A DNA stretch of 32,297 nt from a virus. Lineage: Duplodnaviria; Heunggongvirae; Uroviricota; Caudoviricetes. Position numbers and translations under genes: made by a program. The DNA lies in the IMG/VR virus record IMGVR_UViG_2896589216_000003; one strand, given 5' to 3'. Within the stretch, counting starts at the first letter, position 1; every line of letters begins with the position of its first letter. Of this stretch, positions 1 to 29,678 are shown piece by piece. Below the pieces are notes generated by a model. That model saw nothing but the letters and a program-made list of their open reading frames with translations. It made no database searches and was not told where the DNA came from.

Positions 1-1053
1 TTACGGGGTAATGCCAACCGCTGCCGCCACTTTGTCGCCACTTGGCAGCGTTGCCAGAGGATTGAAACGGAGCGCCGTTTCCAGATGATCCAGTGCCAGA
101 TGTGCGTAACGCATAGTCATTTTTATATCGTGGTGTCCGAGAATTTTTTGTAAGGCCAGAATGTTTCCACCCGACATCATGAAGTGCGCCGCAAACGTAT
201 GGCGCAGAACGTGTGTGAGTTGACCGCGAGGGAGCACGATAGACGTTTTTTCCATCACGGATAAAAATTGAAAATAGCAGTCTGTGAAGAAATTGAACCC
301 ATCAAGCGCCATGATCTCTTCGTAAAGCTCTTTACTGATAGGGATGCTTCTGTTTTTCTTCCCCTTCGTTCTGACAAAGGTAATTCGGTATTTGGTCACC
401 TGTGAGCGGGTAAGATTTACGGCTTCACGCTAGCGTGCGCCTGTGCTTAAGCATATCTTAACTACCAGTGCCAGAATTGGGTCCTGACGTTTGCAATCAG
501 CCAGCAATTCAACAATCTGCTCATGGGTAAGCCATGCCATCTCTTTTTCTGCGATGGTGAATTTTCGCATGTTCTCCAGTGGGTTCGGATACGACCATTC
601 GCCCAGACGGGATAGTTCGCTAAAAACACTACTTAGATAGCTTTGCTCCAGGTTAATGGTGACCGGGCTTGCTCCTTTCTTCCATTTCTCGCTGAAGTAG
701 ATCTCGCCTGTCAGGCGTTTATCTCGATAGTGGGCAAACATTTTAGAGGTGAGATCGGTTGCAAGAGGATTGCCCAGAGCGTCAACCATCAACAGCAATT
801 TGTCATAGACATGCTGCCCAGCTGTCAGAGATTTACCATGTAGTTTGAACCATAGCTCAACCACGTCTTTCAGTGTTCGACGATCCACTGATTCACCCAG
901 CCAGGGCTTTGCTTCGGTTTCTTCCATCGTGTGGCGCTCAAAAGCCAGTGCTTCGCCTTTGGTGGCGAATTGTTTACGCACACGACGCCCACTTCGTCCG
1001 GCAGGGTAACATTCGCAAAGCCATTTCCCAGTGGTGAGTTTTCGTACTGCCAT
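1..1053 (-). pseudogene. int: P2-family tyrosine integrase interrupted by one in-frame TAG (430-432); 3' end (TAA) at window position 1-3
   Basis: ORFs 430..1209 and 1..399 are in the same frame. N-part ends ...LSTGAR then TAG; C-part has RHTFA...HHD...MRYAHL catalytic motifs. TAG sits where P2-type integrases have Trp (TGG). Start ATG 1051-1053 preceded by GGAGGG. Confidence 0.85.
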
Positions 1054-1241
1054 AAAAAATGCCCTCCAGTAGAGAGTATTTTTACTGTATGTATAACCAG
1101 TGTCAATGTATGAAATCCTACGACCATACATCTCACTGAAGCCATAATGAAGTTGGCTATTCTTTTTGCTATGTGAGCATGTAACTTTTGCGGTTAACCT
1201 GCGGCTCATTTTTATTTTAGACGCAGATATAAAAGCAAAAG

Positions 1242-1445
1242 TTATCGTGAGTTTTTAGTACAGATTTTTTTGGATTTACTAATAGTTCCATCATTGCAAA
1301 CAAATTTTCCATCGGAGGTACAGTGAGAGACACCTCCCTTTTTCCCAGAACAAGGATAATTTTTAGCATAGGTAGTTAGTGGGCTTAATAACAAAGAGCA
1401 TGATAAAGAGCATGATAAAACCACAAAAAATACTTTACCAAGCAT
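1242..1445 (-). CDS. small secreted cysteine-rich protein (signal peptide plus about 45-aa mature peptide with 4 Cys); moron between int and repressor
   Basis: Strong RBS GGAGGAAAC before ATG; hydrophobic N-terminus; AT-rich; perfect 12-bp tandem duplication at 1395-1418 inside the signal-peptide coding part (SCSLSCSL). Confidence 0.5.
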
Positions 1446-1460
1446 AGTTTCCTCCCGGTA

Positions 1461-2790: not shown

Positions 2791-3066
2791 GTGGCTTCTG
2801 TTTCTATCAGCTGTCCCTCCTGTTCAGCTACTGACGGGGTGGTGCGTAACGGCAAAAGCACTGCCGGACATCAGCGCTATCTCTGCTCTCACTGCCGTAA
2901 AACATGGCAACTGCAGTTCACTTACACCGCTTCTCAACCCGGTACGCACCAGAAAATTATTGATATGGCCATGAATGGCGTTGGATGCCGGGCAACTGCA
3001 CGCATTATGGGCGTTAGCCTCAACACGATTTTACGTCACTTAAAAAACTCAGGCCGCAGTCGGTAA
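2791..3066 (+). CDS. insA: IS1 InsA
   Basis: 91 aa, [42 protein letters not shown]... Confidence 0.95.
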
Positions 3067-3110
3067 CCTCGCGCATACAGCCGGGCAGTGACGTCATCGT
3101 CTGCGCGGAA

Positions 3111-4604
<1,494 letters not shown>

Positions 4605-4831: not shown

Positions 4832-6369
4832 ATGAGCAGCTCACTTCCTGACGATATCAATGCACTGAAACGTCTCCTTGCCGAACAGGAGGCGCTGAAC
4901 CGTGCCCTGCTGGAAAAGCTGAACGAGCGTGAACGCGAAATAGACCATCTGCAGGCACAGCTGGATAAGCTGCGCCGGATGAACTTCGGCAGCCGCTCCG
5001 AAAAAGTCTCCCGTCGTATCGCACAGATGGAAGCTGACCTGAAGGCACTTCAGAAAGAAAGTGATACCCTTACCGGTCGGGTTGACGACCCGGCCGTGCA
5101 GCGCCCGCTGCGTCAAACCCGCACCCGCAAACCGTTCCCCGAATCACTCCCCGCGATGAAAAACGGCTGCTGCCGGCAGCGTCATGCTGCCCGGAATGTG
5201 GAGGCTCACTGAGCTATCCGGGTGAGGATGCCGCCGAACAGCTGGAGTTGATGCGCAGCGTCTTCCGGGTTATCCGGACTGTACGTGAAAAGCATGCCTG
5301 TACTCAGTGCGATGCCATCGTGCAGGCCCCCGCGCCTTCACGGCCCATCGAGCGGGGTATCGCAGGACCGGGGCTGCTGGCCCGCGTGCTGATCTCAAAG
5401 TATGCAGAGCACACCCCGCTGTACCGCCAGTCTGAAATGTACGGCCGCCAGGGCGTGGAGCTGAGTCGTTCACTGCTGTCGGGCTGGGTGGATGCATGCT
5501 GCCGGCTACTGTCACCGCTGGAAGAAGCGCTTCAGGACTATGTGCTGACTGACGGTAAGCTCCATGCTGATGACACGCCTGTCCCGGTGCTGTTGCCAGG
5601 CAATAAGAAAACGAAGACCGGGCGGTTATGGACCTACGTTCGTGACGACCGTAACGCCGGGTCAACGCTGGCGCCGGCGGTGTGGTTCGCTTACAGCCCG
5701 GACAGAAAAGGCATCCATCCGCAGACCCATCTTGCGGGGTTCAGTGGTGTACTGCAGGCGGATGCATACGCCGGGTTCAACGAGCTGTACCGGGATGGCC
5801 GGATAACGGAAGCCGCCTGTTGGGCTCACGCCCGCCGTAAAATCCACGATGTGCACGTTCGCACCCCGTCAGCCCTGACGGAGGAAGCGCTGAAACGGAT
5901 CGGCGAACTGTACGCCATCGAGGCAGAGATAAGGGGAATGACGGCGGAGCAGCGCCTTGCCGAACGTCAGTTGAAAACGAAACCGCTGCTGAAATCCCTG
6001 GAAAGCTGGCTGCGTGAAAAGATGAAAACCCTGTCGCGACACTCAGAACTGGCGAAAGCGTTCGCATACGCCCTGAACCAGTGGCCGGCGCTGACGTACT
6101 ATGCAGATGATGGCTGGGCTGAGGCGGACAATAATATCGCTGAAAATGCGTTGCGGATGGTCAGTCTGGGCCGCAAAAACTACCTGTTCTTCGGTTCGGA
6201 TCATGGAGGAGAGCGGGGAGCGCTGCTGTACAGCCTGATCGGGACGTGCAAACTGAACGGAGTGGAGCCAGAAAGCTACCTCCGCTATGTACTTGACGTC
6301 ATAGCCGACTGGCCGATAAACCGGGTCGGCGAACTGCTCCCCTGGCGCGTAGCACTGCCGACTGAATAA
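4832..6369 (+). pseudogene. IS66-family transposase TnpC, frameshifted at the C-run 5149-5152
   Basis: ORF 4832..5212 ends ...[16 protein letters not shown]; the other frame continues [23 protein letters not shown]... straight into ORF 5248..6369. Confidence 0.8.
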
Positions 6370-7411: not shown

Positions 7412-7915
7412 TCACTGATAGTGTTTTATGTTCAGATAATGCCCGATGACCTTGTCATGCAGCTCCACCGATTTTGAGAACGACAGTGACTTCCGTCCCA
7501 GCCTTGCCAGATGTTGTCTCAGATTCAGATTATGTCGCTCAATGCGCTGAGTGTAACGCTTGCTGATAACGTGCAGCTTTCCCTTCAGGCGTGATTCATA
7601 CAGCGGCCAGCCATCCGTCATCCATACCACGACCTCAAAGGCCGACAGCAGGCTCAGAAGACGCTCCAGTGTGGCCAGAGTGCGTTCACCGAAGACGTGC
7701 GCCACAACCGTCCTCCGTATCCTGTCATACGCGTAAAACAGCCAGCGCTGACGTGATTTAGCACCGACGTAGCCCCACTGTTCGTCCATTTCAGCGCAGA
7801 CAATCACATCACTGCCCGGTTGTATGCGCGAGGTTACCGACTGCGGCCTGAGTTTTTTAAGTGACGTAAAACCGTGTTGAGGCCAACGCCCATAATGCGT
7901 GCACTGGCGCGACAT
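7412..7915 (-). CDS. insB: IS1 InsB frame (variant isoform)
   Basis: Identical to the copy-3 InsB ORF. Confidence 0.9.
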
Positions 7916-8959: not shown

Positions 8960-10609
8960 ATGTTAGTCAAGAAAAATAAAAATTATAGTTTATATTTTTT
9001 AATTACAAATAATCAACAGATATCTGATTCTGGTAATTATATAAAAATAGTCCCATCAAGAAGCGATTGGAATGATTTTGGATATTTGAGTAGAGTCGAA
9101 ATATCTATTTTTAATAAAAAAGAGTGTAAGGATATAATTTCACTGAATGGTTATATTGGTTTTTTGAATTCAGAGGAGGAACGAAATGGAAAAGCAGAAC
9201 TGATAAGGCGAGTGAAAAAAAAGGAAGAATCTAATTTAAAGGATGAGGGGTTTAATGATTATTTTGTCATGCTTCAGGATATGAATAATTATCGAAGACT
9301 AGTAAGATTTTTTGGGGTGAATGAATCCAAATATATATTAAATTTCATTAATGATGTTGTTTCTAAGAAAAGTGACGCTAGTGCAGAGAATTTGAGGAAA
9401 AAAGCAATCTCTTCTGATATCTTTAATAAATCTTTCATTAGAGAGTCTGAGTCGTATTTTACTTTCAAAAATGCAGGAACAGTTCTTTCCGGTATTCAAT
9501 ATGAGGAGTTGGGTAATTTATCACAGCACATCAAGATTAGCTATTCGAATAAAGTTAATGAAGAAGATGTATCTTATGTTTTTAATTTTGATCACGAGCA
9601 TGATTTACCAAAAAGAATTTCCATAATTATAGGCGAGAATGGTGTAGGAAAAAGCCAAACGCTTAGAGAAATCGCATTGGCTGCGATTAAAGGAAAGGAT
9701 AATTTGGTGGCTGTAGTTGATTCTAACGGTGTGAGCATTGAAGAACGAATTCAAATTAGTAGGCTCATTGCTTTTTCTCCAACAAATGAAAGTAAGTGTT
9801 CATTTCCAACCGATAAAAGAATAAAATCATTGATATGGTACAAAAGATTGACTTTAAATCGTGAATCAAAATCCAAATTAAACTTGAATGATTTAATAGT
9901 GCAACTAGCGAGGAGTAACGACGCTATCGGCTATAATCAAAGGTGGAATATATTTGTTGATGCACTGAGTGTTCTAAATAGTAACAACGATTTAGTAATC
10001 AAATGTGGCGGTGAAAATTCACCATTTGTTAAATTAAATGAGCTTAATTCTCGAGGCGAAGAATCTAGACTATCATTATATTCTGAAATTATTCTCTCTG
10101 GCGAGCCTTTGAGGCTTATTGAAAATAAATGTTACCCTTTGAGTAGTGGGGAAATATCGTTTATTAAGTTTTGTGTACAAGTTTGTTTGTATATTGAGAA
10201 TGGGACTCTTCTATTAATAGATGAGCCAGAAACACATCTCCATCCTTCATTTATTAATAAATTTATGGCATTGCTTGATAATTTATTAGAAAAGACAGGC
10301 TCTTCAGCTATCATAGCAACGCATTCGGTTTATCTTGTTCGGGAGGTTTTTAAGGAGCAAGTGACAATACTCAGAAGACGAGATGATGGGGTAATTGTTA
10401 GCGAAAAACCGAGATTGAGTACTTTTGGGGCGAATATAGGAAATATCTCATATTTTGTTTTCGGTGAGAGTGAACCAACTCAAATTTTAAATAAAGTAAA
10501 AAACAATATAATTGCAAAGAATATGTCTTGGGATGATGTTGAATCTAAATATAGCGAGGACTTATCACTTAATGTATTAACTGCGTTGAGAAATGAAATG
10601 GGCAATTGA
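8960..10609 (+). CDS. ABC/OLD-type (AAA_21-like) ATPase with about 215-aa N-terminal domain of unknown function; candidate defence protein
   Basis: 549 aa; Walker A GENGVGKS (aa 225-232), signature-like LSSGE (394-398), Walker B/D-loop LLLIDEPETHLHP (417-429), H-loop ATHS (453-456); RBS GAGAGGG; strongly AT-rich. Confidence 0.8.
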   Translation: MLVKKNKNYSLYFLITNNQQISDSGNYIKIVPSRSDWNDFGYLSRVEISIFNKKECKDIISLNGYIGFLNSEEERNGKAELIRRVKKKEESNLKDEGFNDYFVMLQDMNNYRRLVRFFGVNESKYILNFINDVVSKKSDASAENLRKKAISSDIFNKSFIRESESYFTFKNAGTVLSGIQYEELGNLSQHIKISYSNKVNEEDVSYVFNFDHEHDLPKRISIIIGENGVGKSQTLREIALAAIKGKDNLVAVVDSNGVSIEERIQISRLIAFSPTNESKCSFPTDKRIKSLIWYKRLTLNRESKSKLNLNDLIVQLARSNDAIGYNQRWNIFVDALSVLNSNNDLVIKCGGENSPFVKLNELNSRGEESRLSLYSEIILSGEPLRLIENKCYPLSSGEISFIKFCVQVCLYIENGTLLLIDEPETHLHPSFINKFMALLDNLLEKTGSSAIIATHSVYLVREVFKEQVTILRRRDDGVIVSEKPRLSTFGANIGNISYFVFGESEPTQILNKVKNNIIAKNMSWDDVESKYSEDLSLNVLTALRNEMGN

Positions 10610-11474
10610 AATGAATAAATTAAAAAGACCTGTTTTTAAAGATTATTCTGCATTTAAAAAACTATCTGCAAATAAGAGATTAAAACATCATTCTGTTCTG
10701 AATGGACAGGATACATTTATACTTAATGCATATAGATCGTACATAAAGAATAAAGGGTATCTTAATGTCAATTCTTGTGGCGTATTGAGTAACAATATTG
10801 CTGAAGCTTTGAGATATTATTATAACAATCCCGCAAAGTGTTTATCTATAATTGATGATATAAGAGCAGCTAATTCTAACTCTCTATGTCCAATGTGTGG
10901 TTCAATGCATAGCGGGACTTTGGATCATGTTTTACCCAAGGAAAACTATCCAGAATTTTCTTTATTCACTAAGAATTTGGTTCCTGCTTGCAAATGTAAT
11001 ACTTTCAAAAGTACTACTATAGCTAATTCTGCAGGCCATCGGATGCTGCATCCATATTTTGATAATATATTAAAACAAAGATTAATATGTGCTAATTTTT
11101 CTAAATTAGGGCGAACACCTACAATTGATGTAAAAATCATAATTGACCCAATGTCACCAGAATATAACAATGTTAAGTATCATCTTGATAATGTTGTTAT
11201 CAAGAATAATATTAAGGGGTATTTGTCTGAACAATGGGAGTCGTTTTACTTATATCCTGAGCTTGTTATTAGAGGACTGAATAAGAGTCTTTCTACTTAT
11301 AGCGATGTATATGAGTTGTTGACTCGCGAGTTGTTGCTGTTGGATGAAAAACATAAAGGTAAAAATAATTGGAATTCGGTTTTTGTAGCTGGGTTAATTC
11401 GACCTGATGTGATTAGGTGGATACTCTGTGAATTACATTTAGGTAACAGAAGTCCAGACGGTCGTCTCATATGA
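10593..11474 (+). CDS. HNH / His-Me-finger nuclease-like protein, partner of the ATPase
   Basis: CPMC-x8-DH-x20-CKCN ... H-x3-H (aa 99-153); overlaps the upstream gene by 17 nt (alternative in-frame ATG at 10611); same AT-rich composition. Confidence 0.7.
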   Translation: MKWAIEMNKLKRPVFKDYSAFKKLSANKRLKHHSVLNGQDTFILNAYRSYIKNKGYLNVNSCGVLSNNIAEALRYYYNNPAKCLSIIDDIRAANSNSLCPMCGSMHSGTLDHVLPKENYPEFSLFTKNLVPACKCNTFKSTTIANSAGHRMLHPYFDNILKQRLICANFSKLGRTPTIDVKIIIDPMSPEYNNVKYHLDNVVIKNNIKGYLSEQWESFYLYPELVIRGLNKSLSTYSDVYELLTRELLLLDEKHKGKNNWNSVFVAGLIRPDVIRWILCELHLGNRSPDGRLI

Positions 11475-11581: not shown

Positions 11582-12615
11582 TTAAGTAGCTAGTTTATAA
11601 CTATCAAATTTAACAATGTTCTCACTTACCAATTTATTTATTTCCATCATTCTTTTTTGTAACGGTATTAACTCGTTACGTACAAACACCAGGCTCGCCT
11701 TCTCCACATCCCCAAACCCCCGACATTATTAGGCATAATCCCCATCATTTGCGGTGGCACACGATGCGCCGCCATCATGTCATCCCGGCTCACGTTCTTG
11801 ATGTTCAGAAACTCATCCTTCGCCGCGACTTCTGACAACGGGATGATCTGAAGCCCGTCCTTTTTGCCGTTAGGCGAGTACATAAACAGATTGCGGAAGT
11901 TACCTGGTCCTTTGGCGCTTTTCATCGCATTGCGGAGGTTGTTCACATCCTCCTGGTTTTGCGCGGCATCGGTCATGTACATGATGAAGCCTGCATGACT
12001 GCCGTTAATGTAATACTATCGGCGGAACAGCGTGGCGGACTCGTTGAGCAGGGCTGACGGAATGGCAGAAAGGTAACCTGGCAGGCCGTAGATCTCTTGG
12101 TTGATGTCCGGTTCCATCAGATGAAAGATGCTTCCTTTCGTGAACTGATACGGCTGCGTGGTCATGCCGTATTGCACAAACCAGTAGGTATCCAGGTCTA
12201 ATCCGCGTCGGGTGTATTTTGCCAGAGCAGGCTCAAGAGCGATGACCTCTCCGAACCGGTTTGTGCGTTTCTCCAGGTAAGCGTTACCAAATACCAGATA
12301 ATCCTGCACAAAACGTGAAAAAGCCTGCTGGCTGAGCAGCGGGTGAGGGATGTAGGTACTGATCAGAATGTTGCATTTCACCGCAATTGGTGAACTGTGA
12401 TGCACGGCGGCGCGGAAGGTGCGCGCCAGTCCGTCAAAACTCACTGGCGGCTCATACCAGCGATCTGTCTGTACGCATTCCACATAGTCCAGTAGTTCAC
12501 GGCGGTCCAGAACCGGAACGGGATCGCCGAAGCTGAATGCTTCGGCTGAAGTCTGGTTTTTATGCTGGGTCTGTTTCGTCGCCGCAGCGCGGTTCTTCTT
12601 ACTCTTTCCCATCAA
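11582..12615 (-). pseudogene. Q: portal protein (P2 gpQ-like) with in-frame TAG (12016-12018) and a 1-bp frameshift near 11714-11716
   Basis: N-part ...LNESATLFRR then TAG, continuing in the same frame (LYINGSHAGFIMY...); C-terminal ...PNNVGGLGMWRRR* shifts frame, the other frame gives GDVEKASLVFVRNELIPLQ... to stop at 11582. Confidence 0.8.
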
Positions 12616-14378
12616 AAAATCTCCACAATATTGCTGGTATTGGCGGACTCGCCCTGCAGCGGTTCGTTAAACAGTGCGTGCATTGTTGCCCAGGCCAGAT
12701 CGGCATGGCTGGCTTCTTCGCTGCGGCTGGCTTCATAGGTCGGGCGGTTGCCGCTGGCGGTGGTGGCGCGACGGATTGCCATGAATGACTGCGCAATGTC
12801 GGTGTGCCCGGCGTCAAACTCAAGACGGCGGTGGCTGATAATGTCGTAGGCCTTGAGTACCAGGGCGTTTTTAACGTTGGGGTTGTAGACAAACTCCCGG
12901 ACGGCAGGAAAAAACGCTTTCACGTTCTCGTAAACCCCGTGACCAACGCCGGTTGAGTCGATGCCGATATAGGTCACGTTGTACTGTTCAGTCAGTTTTT
13001 TGATGGCGTAAGCCTGGGCGCGAAAGTCCATTCCGCGCCACTGGTGACGCTCAAGAATGCGGAACTTACCGCCTGGCACGGCTGGCGGTGCCACCACCAC
13101 GCATCCGGCGCTGTCGCCGTTCTGCGTACCTTTTGCCGGGTCATAACCGATCCACACTTCGCGCCAGCCAAACGGGCGCAGGGCCAGTGCATGAAAGTCG
13201 GTCCAGACTTCCCAGCTGTCCACCATGCACGCCTGCAATTCGCTGAGCGGGAACACGGACGCGAGATCGTCCACGAACTCGCACATCAGCAGGTTCTGGT
13301 ATTCGTCAGGGCTGTACTCCATGCGCAACTGGTCAAGGTCGAACAGGTTACAGGCGCCGCGCACCGCATCTTCCACGGTGACTATCTGGCGGTATTGCCC
13401 GTCTGCGCACAGCAGGCCGGGGGCCAGATTGCTGTGGGACAGGTCGATGTCCACCTTGTCAGCTTTGTTGCGCCCACGGTTGAACAGCGCACCGGACCAG
13501 AACGGATAAGCACTGTGGGTCAGACTGGATGGTGTGGAAAAATAGGTCTGCCGCCATTTCTTGTGAATAGCCATACCAGAAGCCACTTTGCGTAGCTCCT
13601 GAAATTTCGGTATCCAGAAATATTCATCCAGATACAGGTTACCGTGATAACTCTGGGCAGTGCGGGCATTGGTGCCGAGGAAATACAGTGTGGCCCCGTT
13701 GGGAAGCACCATCGGATCGCCTTTCAGCTCCACCTCCACTTCTTTGGCAAAGTCGATGATGTACTGTTTGAAGACGTGGGCCTGTGCCTTACTGGCAGAA
13801 AGGAAAATCTGGTTACGTCCGGTAAGCAGGGCGTCAATCAGGGCTTCACGGGCAAAATAGAAGGTCGCGCCGATCTGGCGTGACTTCAGCAGGTTGCGGA
13901 TGCGGTTGGTTTTTCCGGCTTCCCACCAGTGGCGCTGGTAGTTGAACATGGAGGAATGGAAATTTTTTTCCAGCTTCTCAATCTGGTCATCGGTGAAAAC
14001 ATTCTTTTCAGGCTGACGGCGTGGGCCTTTGTTGCGGTTGGCGACGTTAGGGTTTAAGTCGGCTTCGTTGCCGCCATTGTTAAACTTGCCGATCCGCGCG
14101 TGGCGCTCAGACTGGCGCGCCAGCAGGTCAATATCTTTGAAATCTTTCCCTTCTTTGTGCTCCTTCATGATGAGCTGGCAGTAGCGTGCGGCGGTGGTGA
14201 GCTGCATCTGATCCAGAGGCCCATAGTCACCCCACTTGTCGCGTTTTTTCCAGCTGTAAACGGTTGCAACTTTCTCGCCCAGCATTTCAGCAATGCGGGC
14301 TACGCGGTATCCCTGAAAGTACAGCAGCATGGCCTGCCGACGGGGATCGAGATCTGCGGGTGTCAGTGTGGTGTTCAT
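12612..14378 (-). CDS. P: terminase large (ATPase) subunit, P2 gpP-like
   Basis: 588 aa, apparently intact; divergent from the O-N-M operon as in P2. Confidence 0.85.
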   Translation of the reverse strand: MNTTLTPADLDPRRQAMLLYFQGYRVARIAEMLGEKVATVYSWKKRDKWGDYGPLDQMQLTTAARYCQLIMKEHKEGKDFKDIDLLARQSERHARIGKFNNGGNEADLNPNVANRNKGPRRQPEKNVFTDDQIEKLEKNFHSSMFNYQRHWWEAGKTNRIRNLLKSRQIGATFYFAREALIDALLTGRNQIFLSASKAQAHVFKQYIIDFAKEVEVELKGDPMVLPNGATLYFLGTNARTAQSYHGNLYLDEYFWIPKFQELRKVASGMAIHKKWRQTYFSTPSSLTHSAYPFWSGALFNRGRNKADKVDIDLSHSNLAPGLLCADGQYRQIVTVEDAVRGACNLFDLDQLRMEYSPDEYQNLLMCEFVDDLASVFPLSELQACMVDSWEVWTDFHALALRPFGWREVWIGYDPAKGTQNGDSAGCVVVAPPAVPGGKFRILERHQWRGMDFRAQAYAIKKLTEQYNVTYIGIDSTGVGHGVYENVKAFFPAVREFVYNPNVKNALVLKAYDIISHRRLEFDAGHTDIAQSFMAIRRATTASGNRPTYEASRSEEASHADLAWATMHALFNEPLQGESANTSNIVEIF

Positions 14379-29443: not shown

Positions 29444-29529
29444 CGCTGCCGCCATTTTGTCGCCATCGTTAAAAAACAGTGCTTCTAACATCATGATTTT
29501 AAAAGGCATAAATTTCAGACAACAAAAAA

Positions 29530-29566
29530 CCCATCAACCTTGAACCGAAATGGCGGGGTTGATGGG
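29530..29566 (-). terminator. rho-independent terminator downstream of ybjL (minus-strand sense)
   Basis: CCCATCAACC ... GGTTGATGGG 10-bp stems with a 17-nt loop, followed on the minus strand by a T6 run. Confidence 0.5.
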
Positions 29567-29678
29567 CTCCACAAAATGGGGACATCAAAGAAAAGCAGTG
29601 GCACTAATTAAGACTGATGCCCTGCGGAAAAGTTCTGCGGTTGTGCAAAAAAATTTCATTTTCAGGGCAACTTCAGTT

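Follow-up and report, generated by a model that had tools for sequence, protein, structure and literature searches.

Background

Escherichia coli K-12 YdcA is a 57-aa predicted periplasmic protein (bioRxiv 10.1101/2024.02.12.579971), and the literature places its gene next to rydC. Deletion of ydcA in E. coli W led to sensitivity to 300 mM 3-hydroxypropionate, with normal growth when 3-hydroxypropionate was absent, and the gene was reported to be acid-induced under YdcI (PMC7642389). The nearest match of known structure that we obtained for the protein studied here, Dis2 (Lpg0823), is pinned by disulfides and sits close to the outer membrane as part of the Legionella Dot/Icm machine. Dis2 is dispensable, and its role is unestablished (PMC12716638).

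The record of phage 186 describes a leftward 'lysogenic operon' consisting of cI, int and orf69, driven by pL and by the CII-activated pE, in which cI and int overlap by 1 nt and leave no gap. In lambda, rexAB is cargo co-transcribed with the repressor. A moron, in the sense of Hendrix and colleagues, is an autonomous cargo unit with its own promoter and terminator.

Here we examine a small gene between int and cI in a 32,297-nt stretch of viral DNA (IMG/VR record IMGVR_UViG_2896589216_000003, hereafter the window), which a sequence-only reading had interpreted as a moron encoding a secreted, cysteine- and lysine-rich peptide. This gene is probably a functional YdcA-family member that a 186-like prophage in a Shigella chromosome carries as cargo within its lysogenic operon. 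The family, to which no function is assigned, recurs as temperate-phage cargo, following the repressor directly in three or more P2-like lineages, and ydcA-like proteins occur in many enterobacterial lysogens. We regard the interest of the locus as modest; it lies in this repeated wiring behind P2-type repressors, in a missed ORF of phage HP2 and in a possible kinship with Dis2.

Results

A conserved coding gene of the YdcA family

The window matched CP026832.1 exactly over the 5445 bp compared. The features of the locus are collected in Table 1. The ORF of interest comprises 67 codons from an ATG, with a GGGAGG Shine-Dalgarno sequence 5 nt before it, confirming the coordinates and the strong ribosome-binding site described earlier. 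It begins 15 nt past the cI stop codon (1461–1463) and ends 188 nt before the start of int at 1053, giving a cI–int interval of 407 bp made up of the gene and a spacer. The CI repressor is annotated as 189 aa in relatives and, on the phage 186 layout, its gene would come first in the leftward lysogenic operon to which the ydcA-like gene belongs. GC content across the ORF was 0.34–0.35 versus 0.45–0.52 in int, so the description of the gene as AT-rich unlike its neighbours held on the int side; the adjoining C-terminal half of cI was just as AT-rich (0.32–0.37), and on that side the description failed.

Table 1 Features of the ydcA-like locus, in window coordinates
Feature	Position	Strand	Basis
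P2/186-type integrase, pseudogene	1..1053	minus	ORF list, Pfam Int_N
Spacer between ydcA-like gene and int, 188 nt	1054..1241	minus	
ydcA-like gene, 67 aa	1242..1445, stop codon included	minus	ORF list, NF007463, phrog_6000, PF27300, pN/pS
Mature domain, residues 28–67, cysteines C32, C42, C50, C62	1245..1364	minus	family alignment, AlphaFold2
Signal-peptide coding part, residues 1–27	1365..1445	minus	family alignment
Perfect 12-bp tandem duplication, AGAGCATGATAA x2	1395..1406 + 1407..1418		Tandem Repeats Finder
cI/ydcA-like junction, 15 nt, with GGGAGG ribosome-binding site	1446..1460	minus	sequence
186-type CI repressor gene, intact	1461..~2030–2036	minus	Pfam Phage_CI_repr + Phage_CI_C

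Comparison of alleles over the mature part gave 5–11 synonymous versus 1–2 non-synonymous differences (pN/pS 0.04–0.05). This shows that the ORF is a conserved coding gene under strong purifying selection, and thus a real gene.

The gene is also already known, as the exact protein is in NCBI and the family has both Pfam and NCBIfam models; it is catalogued as YdcA (NF007463, PF27300, phrog_6000), and the view of it as an orphan does not stand. The window protein scored 103.8 bits against the NCBIfam equivalog NF007463 (PRK10040.1-2; cutoff 93), covering model positions 2–58 of 58, and fell under the cutoffs of the other two models of the PRK10040 set, NF007462 and NF007464. It matched phrog_6000 at E = 1e-30, and Pfam PF27300 (YdcA) is on record for the exact 67-aa protein and for its cluster representative. 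A Pfam copy predating PF27300 gave no match to the ORF because the family is newer than that copy. In RefSeq, the 63-aa E. coli CDS is named 'YdcA family protein' or 'hypothetical protein'.

Of 5426 complete E. coli genomes, 695 contained DNA corresponding to the int-to-cI region at 90–97% identity; there the prophage order is int, ydcA-like, CI, cox-like, cII, fil and the prophage adjoins rcdA. An exhaustive profile search of 1.84 billion representatives returned 470 clusters (50% identity) at E ≤ 0.001, some of them with two or three tandem domains. Two other family labels were rejected. The NCBIfam match to the lpg1681 family was non-significant (E = 0.076), and lpg1681 is a 105-aa protein with two transmembrane helices (PMC6598767). 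'Conjugal transfer protein', the UniRef name of some 63-aa members, was treated as an annotation artefact, since T4SS genes were absent beside the plasmid-borne homologues examined.

A predicted Sec signal and a four-cysteine mature domain

To describe the protein we aligned 72 YdcA-family members and predicted the signal peptide from the (-3,-1) rule together with the family comparison. The N-terminus of the family is 15–32 residues long (mode 22–23) and free to vary in sequence, with a net positive charge in 69/72 members and an uncharged stretch of 15–25 residues. Ala occupies position -1 in 69/72 and a small residue position -3 in all 72. By these features, the N-terminus across the family is a classic predicted Sec signal of the cleavable kind. 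The window protein has a net positive N-terminus and T-Y-A at -3 to -1, and signal peptidase I is predicted to cut after Ala27 (TYA/KNYP).

The predicted mature peptide carries 8 Lys and 1 Arg versus 2 Asp, and four Cys. The mature part had earlier been put at ~45 aa with four Cys and many Lys; the four Cys and the lysine richness (8 Lys) held, and the length is revised to 40 aa. Four Cys occur in 71/72 family members, in a motif whose positions are invariant or nearly so, and C32, C42, C50 and C62 of the window protein align with the family's invariant cysteines. AlphaFold2 was confident for the mature core only (pLDDT 87–91 at residues 31–60). The window protein has the layout of the YdcA family, with a cleavable signal followed by a basic domain of ~36–40 aa containing four conserved Cys. 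The proposal of a gene for a small Sec-exported peptide rich in Cys and Lys is thereby supported as concerns a real coding gene, with the export signal a prediction.

Among PDB entries, the top match was Dis2, a component of the Legionella Dot/Icm outer-membrane cap, at E = 5.6e-6 with the full-alignment profile; it was still on top with a mature-only profile (E = 9.7e-4). Foldseek with the AlphaFold2 model also ranked Dis2 first (probability 0.85–0.94, 38% identity, E = 0.14). The window protein is a single domain with no T4SS genes nearby, and the similarity is at the level of the motif only. On these profile and model comparisons, shared ancestry with Dis2 would be a borderline call. By analogy, the match offers reasonable evidence that this type of domain may be exported and disulfide-bonded.

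Cargo within the repressor operon

Since cI and int overlap in 186, the ydcA-like gene and the spacer behind it constitute an insertion into the operon. The site is thus occupied here and empty in 186, and the insert has a deviant GC content of 0.34–0.35, as expected of a moron. We then looked for signals of autonomous expression. A consensus scan found no minus-strand sigma-70-like site upstream of the ORF; the sole nearby minus-strand promoter-like site (1441–1412) lies inside the ORF, and the 15-nt junction to cI is too short to house a promoter. The same scan found no minus-strand terminator-like site directly after the ORF stop, the sole one (1076–1062) lying ~165 nt downstream of the ORF and just before the start of int. 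The promoter of the lysogenic operon was not located within the window by consensus scan.

With neither a promoter nor a terminator of its own found by the scan, and with a start only 15 nt behind cI in the lysogenic operon, the gene does not fit the classic self-contained moron proposed for it. A better description is cargo that has entered the repressor operon and would be made whenever the repressor is.

The spacer was considered as a separate functional element and rejected, as its conservation equalled that of the flanks across 49 unique relatives; Rfam returned nothing in the 188 nt. A plus-strand terminator-like hairpin at 1188–1204 is built on G-T pairs, and would therefore fold more poorly on the transcribed (minus) strand.

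Recurrence behind P2-type repressors and in other contexts

The arrangement was constant among the 80 best IMG/VR relatives. All 80 had cI followed after 18 nt by the ydcA-like gene, a spacing identical to that in the window, and 78 had int 181–191 nt further downstream; no int match was found in the remaining two. Beyond these, Haemophilus phages HP2 and S2 carry an unannotated 60-aa YdcA-family ORF between cI and orf1(S). In HP2, the ATG of this ORF shares 1 nt with the cI stop, and the ORF precedes orf1(S) and int within what is annotated as the pL operon. When a more diverse set of viral contigs was compared, 14 HP2-like ones shared this cI-linked placement, and a third P2-like lineage (5 contigs) had a YdcA-like gene downstream of cI and 101 nt upstream of int.

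Relatives also place other genes in the gap between cI and int. In E. coli NGF1, a 443-aa KAP-family NTPase (1642–2973) matching the PADLOC candidate PDC-S20 (E = 2e-171) takes the place of the usual spacer separating the ydcA-like gene from int. Phage vB_EcoM-813R9 has a DUF4041/T5orf172 protein in the gap, and Klebsiella phage 4LV2017 a 349-aa hypothetical protein. With 186 gapless and the cargo of its relatives so varied, the suggestion that the interval between integrase and repressor is a cargo site proved correct.

YdcA-family genes were found in further settings: in the tail-gene region of Moraxella Mcat phages, in an Acinetobacter Vieuvirus phage whose copy is unannotated, in an apparent nin-type region of a Citrobacter lambdoid prophage (flanked by replication-type genes and rusA), on Acinetobacter and Rhizobium plasmids, and as a stand-alone chromosomal member in a non-prophage context in Moraxella bovoculi. 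In Acinetobacter phage Ab11510-phi, an unannotated 61-aa YdcA-family ORF with a GTG start (2917–3102) lies just upstream of a 108-aa ORF, and the surrounding genes are annotated as hypothetical proteins only. No conserved partner gene emerged from the YdcA-family loci compared. A partner-gene reading was rejected on the ORFs downstream of the M. bovoculi and HP2 copies, which are unrelated (BLASTP E = 1.0) and have no Pfam family in common.

State and location of the prophage

Close to the end of the phage-like region that is distant from int, Rfam identified a RybB sRNA gene (29521–29599, minus strand; 105 bits); on the opposite side, rcdA is situated immediately past int. With rybB at one end and rcdA at the other, this seems to be a 186-like (P2-family) prophage integrated between rcdA and rybB, adjoining the 3' end of rybB. 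A quick search found no exact att core repeat of at least 12 nt.

Several of its genes are damaged. An in-frame TAG at 430–432 (codon 208) splits the 350-aa ORF of int, which is intact in E. coli relatives, and in 8/8 Shigella genomes int is either split or uncalled as a gene. cII is truncated after 61 codons (2404–2589) by an IS3-family element that is itself interrupted by IS1 (2791–3488). The IS3-family element occupies the cII interruption in 8/8 Shigella genomes, among which further IS content varies, and absence of the nested IS1 from the sister Shigella genomes indicates that decay is ongoing. An IS66-family element follows at 4832–6369 and a second IS1 at 7412–7915.

Other parts of the prophage held further features. 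A two-gene pair at 8960–11474 (plus strand) encodes a 549-aa AAA_21/AAA_15 ATPase and a 293-aa partner, which match A and B of the PADLOC candidate PDC-M01 (E = 3e-55 and 1e-33). The pair is separated from the packaging genes by a few hundred bases, a position that would correspond roughly to the P2 old/tin accessory hotspot. Immediately 3' of the large terminase gene (12612–14378), ORFs on the minus strand at 12016–12892 fall into two pieces of 199 and 97 aa, where a P2-type portal gene would be expected. The 199-aa piece had no Pfam match at E ≤ 1e-5; the two pieces may be another frameshifted prophage gene.

A 12-bp duplication in the signal peptide

The signal peptide of the window protein contains a repeat, SCSL-SCSL, in its hydrophobic core, encoded by the 12-bp tandem duplication (Table 1). 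Tandem Repeats Finder reported it at 1393–1419 (period 12, 2.2 copies, 100% match). A perfect tandem match of 15 positions is expected ~3e-5 times in 32 kb (4^-15 x 32297), so chance cannot explain it. The allele of E. coli ECCWS199 is identical at every base minus one 12-bp unit, which makes the duplication a true insertion. The SCSLSCSL duplication noticed in the sequence-only reading was therefore borne out by both the repeat finder and relatives that lack one unit. AAA stands on both sides of the unit and extends the repeat register to 1393–1419, and the duplication is the product expected of replication slippage at this microhomology.

The exact 67-aa sequence is named from Shigella only (S. 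dysenteriae and 'MULTISPECIES Shigella'; 143 contigs). Eight Shigella genomes carried the duplicated allele at the same chromosomal site. Among the E. coli matches listed, full-length ones spanned 393–395 bp versus 407 (best identity 96.8%), and at the duplication junction the best were two-piece alignments (41 bp versus 53). The duplication was likewise absent from the 80 best IMG/VR viral contigs. Rather than characterising the gene as a whole, the duplication marks an allele seen in a single lineage, that of Shigella.

With the duplication, the signal peptide is 27 residues long instead of 23 and its uncharged stretch 23 instead of 19, both within the upper part of the family ranges (15–32 and 15–25). 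Neither Pro at -6 nor the T-Y-A cleavage site is altered by the insertion. We therefore read it as most likely neutral or nearly so, fixed in a Shigella lineage along with a decaying prophage. A contingency or phase-variable repeat was rejected, as one-copy and two-copy alleles only were seen and a 12-bp unit is unable to switch the frame. An apparent third repeat in a 71-aa cluster member was rejected as well, being a frameshift in an A7 run near the 3' end. This run (~1254–1260 in the window) is frameshifted in some E. coli alleles, giving a 71-aa product without the fourth Cys, which makes the homopolymer a second mutational hotspot in the gene.

Alternatively, the duplication might impair export, for example by creating an uncleaved anchor, with the ORF heading, like the remainder of the prophage, towards pseudogene status. 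Gene decay is well known in Shigella genomes, int has its premature TAG, nested IS elements disrupt cII and more IS elements lie elsewhere in the prophage, and the uncharged stretch has moved to the upper end of the family range, all of which fit such a remnant. Against it, the insertion preserves the reading frame, 8/8 Shigella genomes keep the ORF intact despite differing IS content nearby, signal peptides of 26–32 residues are known in other family members, and Pro at -6 and the T-Y-A site are unchanged. We consider this account unlikely, and retain a functional YdcA-family gene, although with the prophage defective here the gene may no longer matter to its present host.

Discussion

Proposed function and alternatives

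As cargo of the repressor operon, the ydcA-like gene would be transcribed with cI in the lysogen from pL/pE-type promoters. Its product would be exported by Sec and cut after Ala27, and its four Cys would then be oxidised (DsbA) to two disulfides in the periplasm, giving a compact, strongly basic peptide of ~40 aa kept in the cell envelope. There, the mature peptide would most likely bind an anionic or outer-membrane-associated partner and alter some envelope property to the lysogen's benefit, such as acid or organic-acid tolerance or interference with incoming DNA or phage. Such a product would not be a diffusible toxin.

A more specific version casts the protein as a superinfection-exclusion or anti-DNA-entry factor, made with the repressor and acting at the inner face of the outer membrane by blocking a receptor or a DNA-translocation machine. 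Its placement beside cI in the lysogenic operon of three P2-like lineages speaks for this, as do the defence-type cargo in the gap of relatives (the KAP NTPase matching PDC-S20 and the DUF4041/T5orf172 protein) and the recurrence of the family as cargo in unrelated temperate phages (Moraxella Mcat, Acinetobacter Vieuvirus, a Citrobacter lambdoid prophage). However, PADLOC-DB returned 0 families at E ≤ 0.01, Dis2 is dispensable and without an established role (PMC12716638), and the chromosomal, non-prophage family member is better fitted by a housekeeping envelope role than by exclusion. Exclusion is thus improbable as the function. A broader speculation, in which YdcA mini-proteins would be widespread and unrecognised repressor-linked cargo that acts in the periplasm on the inner side of the outer membrane, in the region occupied by Dis2 in the Dot/Icm machine, and there blocks DNA entry or hardens the envelope, with SCSL perhaps serving as a membrane tether in Shigella, seems to us quite unlikely.

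Very unlikely is the secreted toxin or bacteriocin-like peptide, inhibiting neighbouring bacteria, that was suggested from the sequence. The product is small, cationic and Cys-rich, has an N-terminal leader and is carried on a mobile element, as such a peptide would be. Yet its leader, an ordinary Sec signal whose cleavage site is of the A-x-A type, delivers to the periplasm only, and the neighbours are cI and int, both here and in 78/80 of the best viral contigs, where a bacteriocin or microcin locus would have immunity and dedicated export or processing genes alongside; no immunity, ABC-exporter or processing gene adjoins the gene here or in relatives. No bacteriocin-family match was found in Pfam, PADLOC or PDB. 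The stand-alone chromosomal copy of M. bovoculi and the literature position of K-12 ydcA next to rydC also argue against a toxin, and deleting ydcA in E. coli W left growth normal when 3-hydroxypropionate was absent (PMC7642389).

That the protein is a lipoprotein, with a Cys of the repeated SCSL lipidated and the lipobox altered by the duplication, is hardly credible: a Cys does lie in the hydrophobic segment (LSC) and one Yersinia homologue is labelled 'Lipoprotein' by its source, but the 63-aa and 67-aa forms, without and with the duplication, both lack the [LVI][ASTVI][GAS]C lipobox and any PROSITE PS51257-type pattern, and 51/72 family members have no Cys in the signal peptide, whereas Ala at -1 is conserved.

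Comparison with known systems

A putative envelope protein of the YdcA family carried as repressor-operon cargo can be set beside four other systems. With K-12 YdcA (b1419) and the rest of the family it shares a predicted Sec signal of ~20–27 aa followed by a basic mature domain of ~36–40 aa with four Cys. K-12 ydcA is chromosomal and next to rydC, whereas the window copy is prophage-borne in the cI–int operon and differs from K-12 YdcA and the family by the 4-aa SCSL insertion in its signal peptide.

Dis2 and the window protein have in common the motif CS.K.GG[VI]..C...G..VCN[DN]G..S, and Dis2 is likewise an exported protein held by disulfides (PMC8486379). They differ in that Dis2 has two tandem lobes with five disulfides and is a T4SS part, whereas the window protein is a single domain with phage genes as neighbours.

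The HP2/S2 ORF resembles the window gene in being a YdcA-family member that shares the strand of cI and precedes int in the lysogenic (pL) operon of a P2-like phage. Unlike the window gene, it overlaps the cI stop by 1 nt at its start, its signal peptide resembles those of Pasteurellaceae homologues, and a second secreted protein, orf1(S), comes next; the CI of these phages is 32% identical to the window CI.

Finally, lambda rexAB provides a parallel in arrangement, being accessory genes directly behind cI that need no separate promoter to be expressed in the lysogen. The two are unrelated in sequence, and the products contrast, with cytoplasmic or inner-membrane abortive-infection proteins in lambda and a predicted periplasmic mini-protein in the Shigella prophage.
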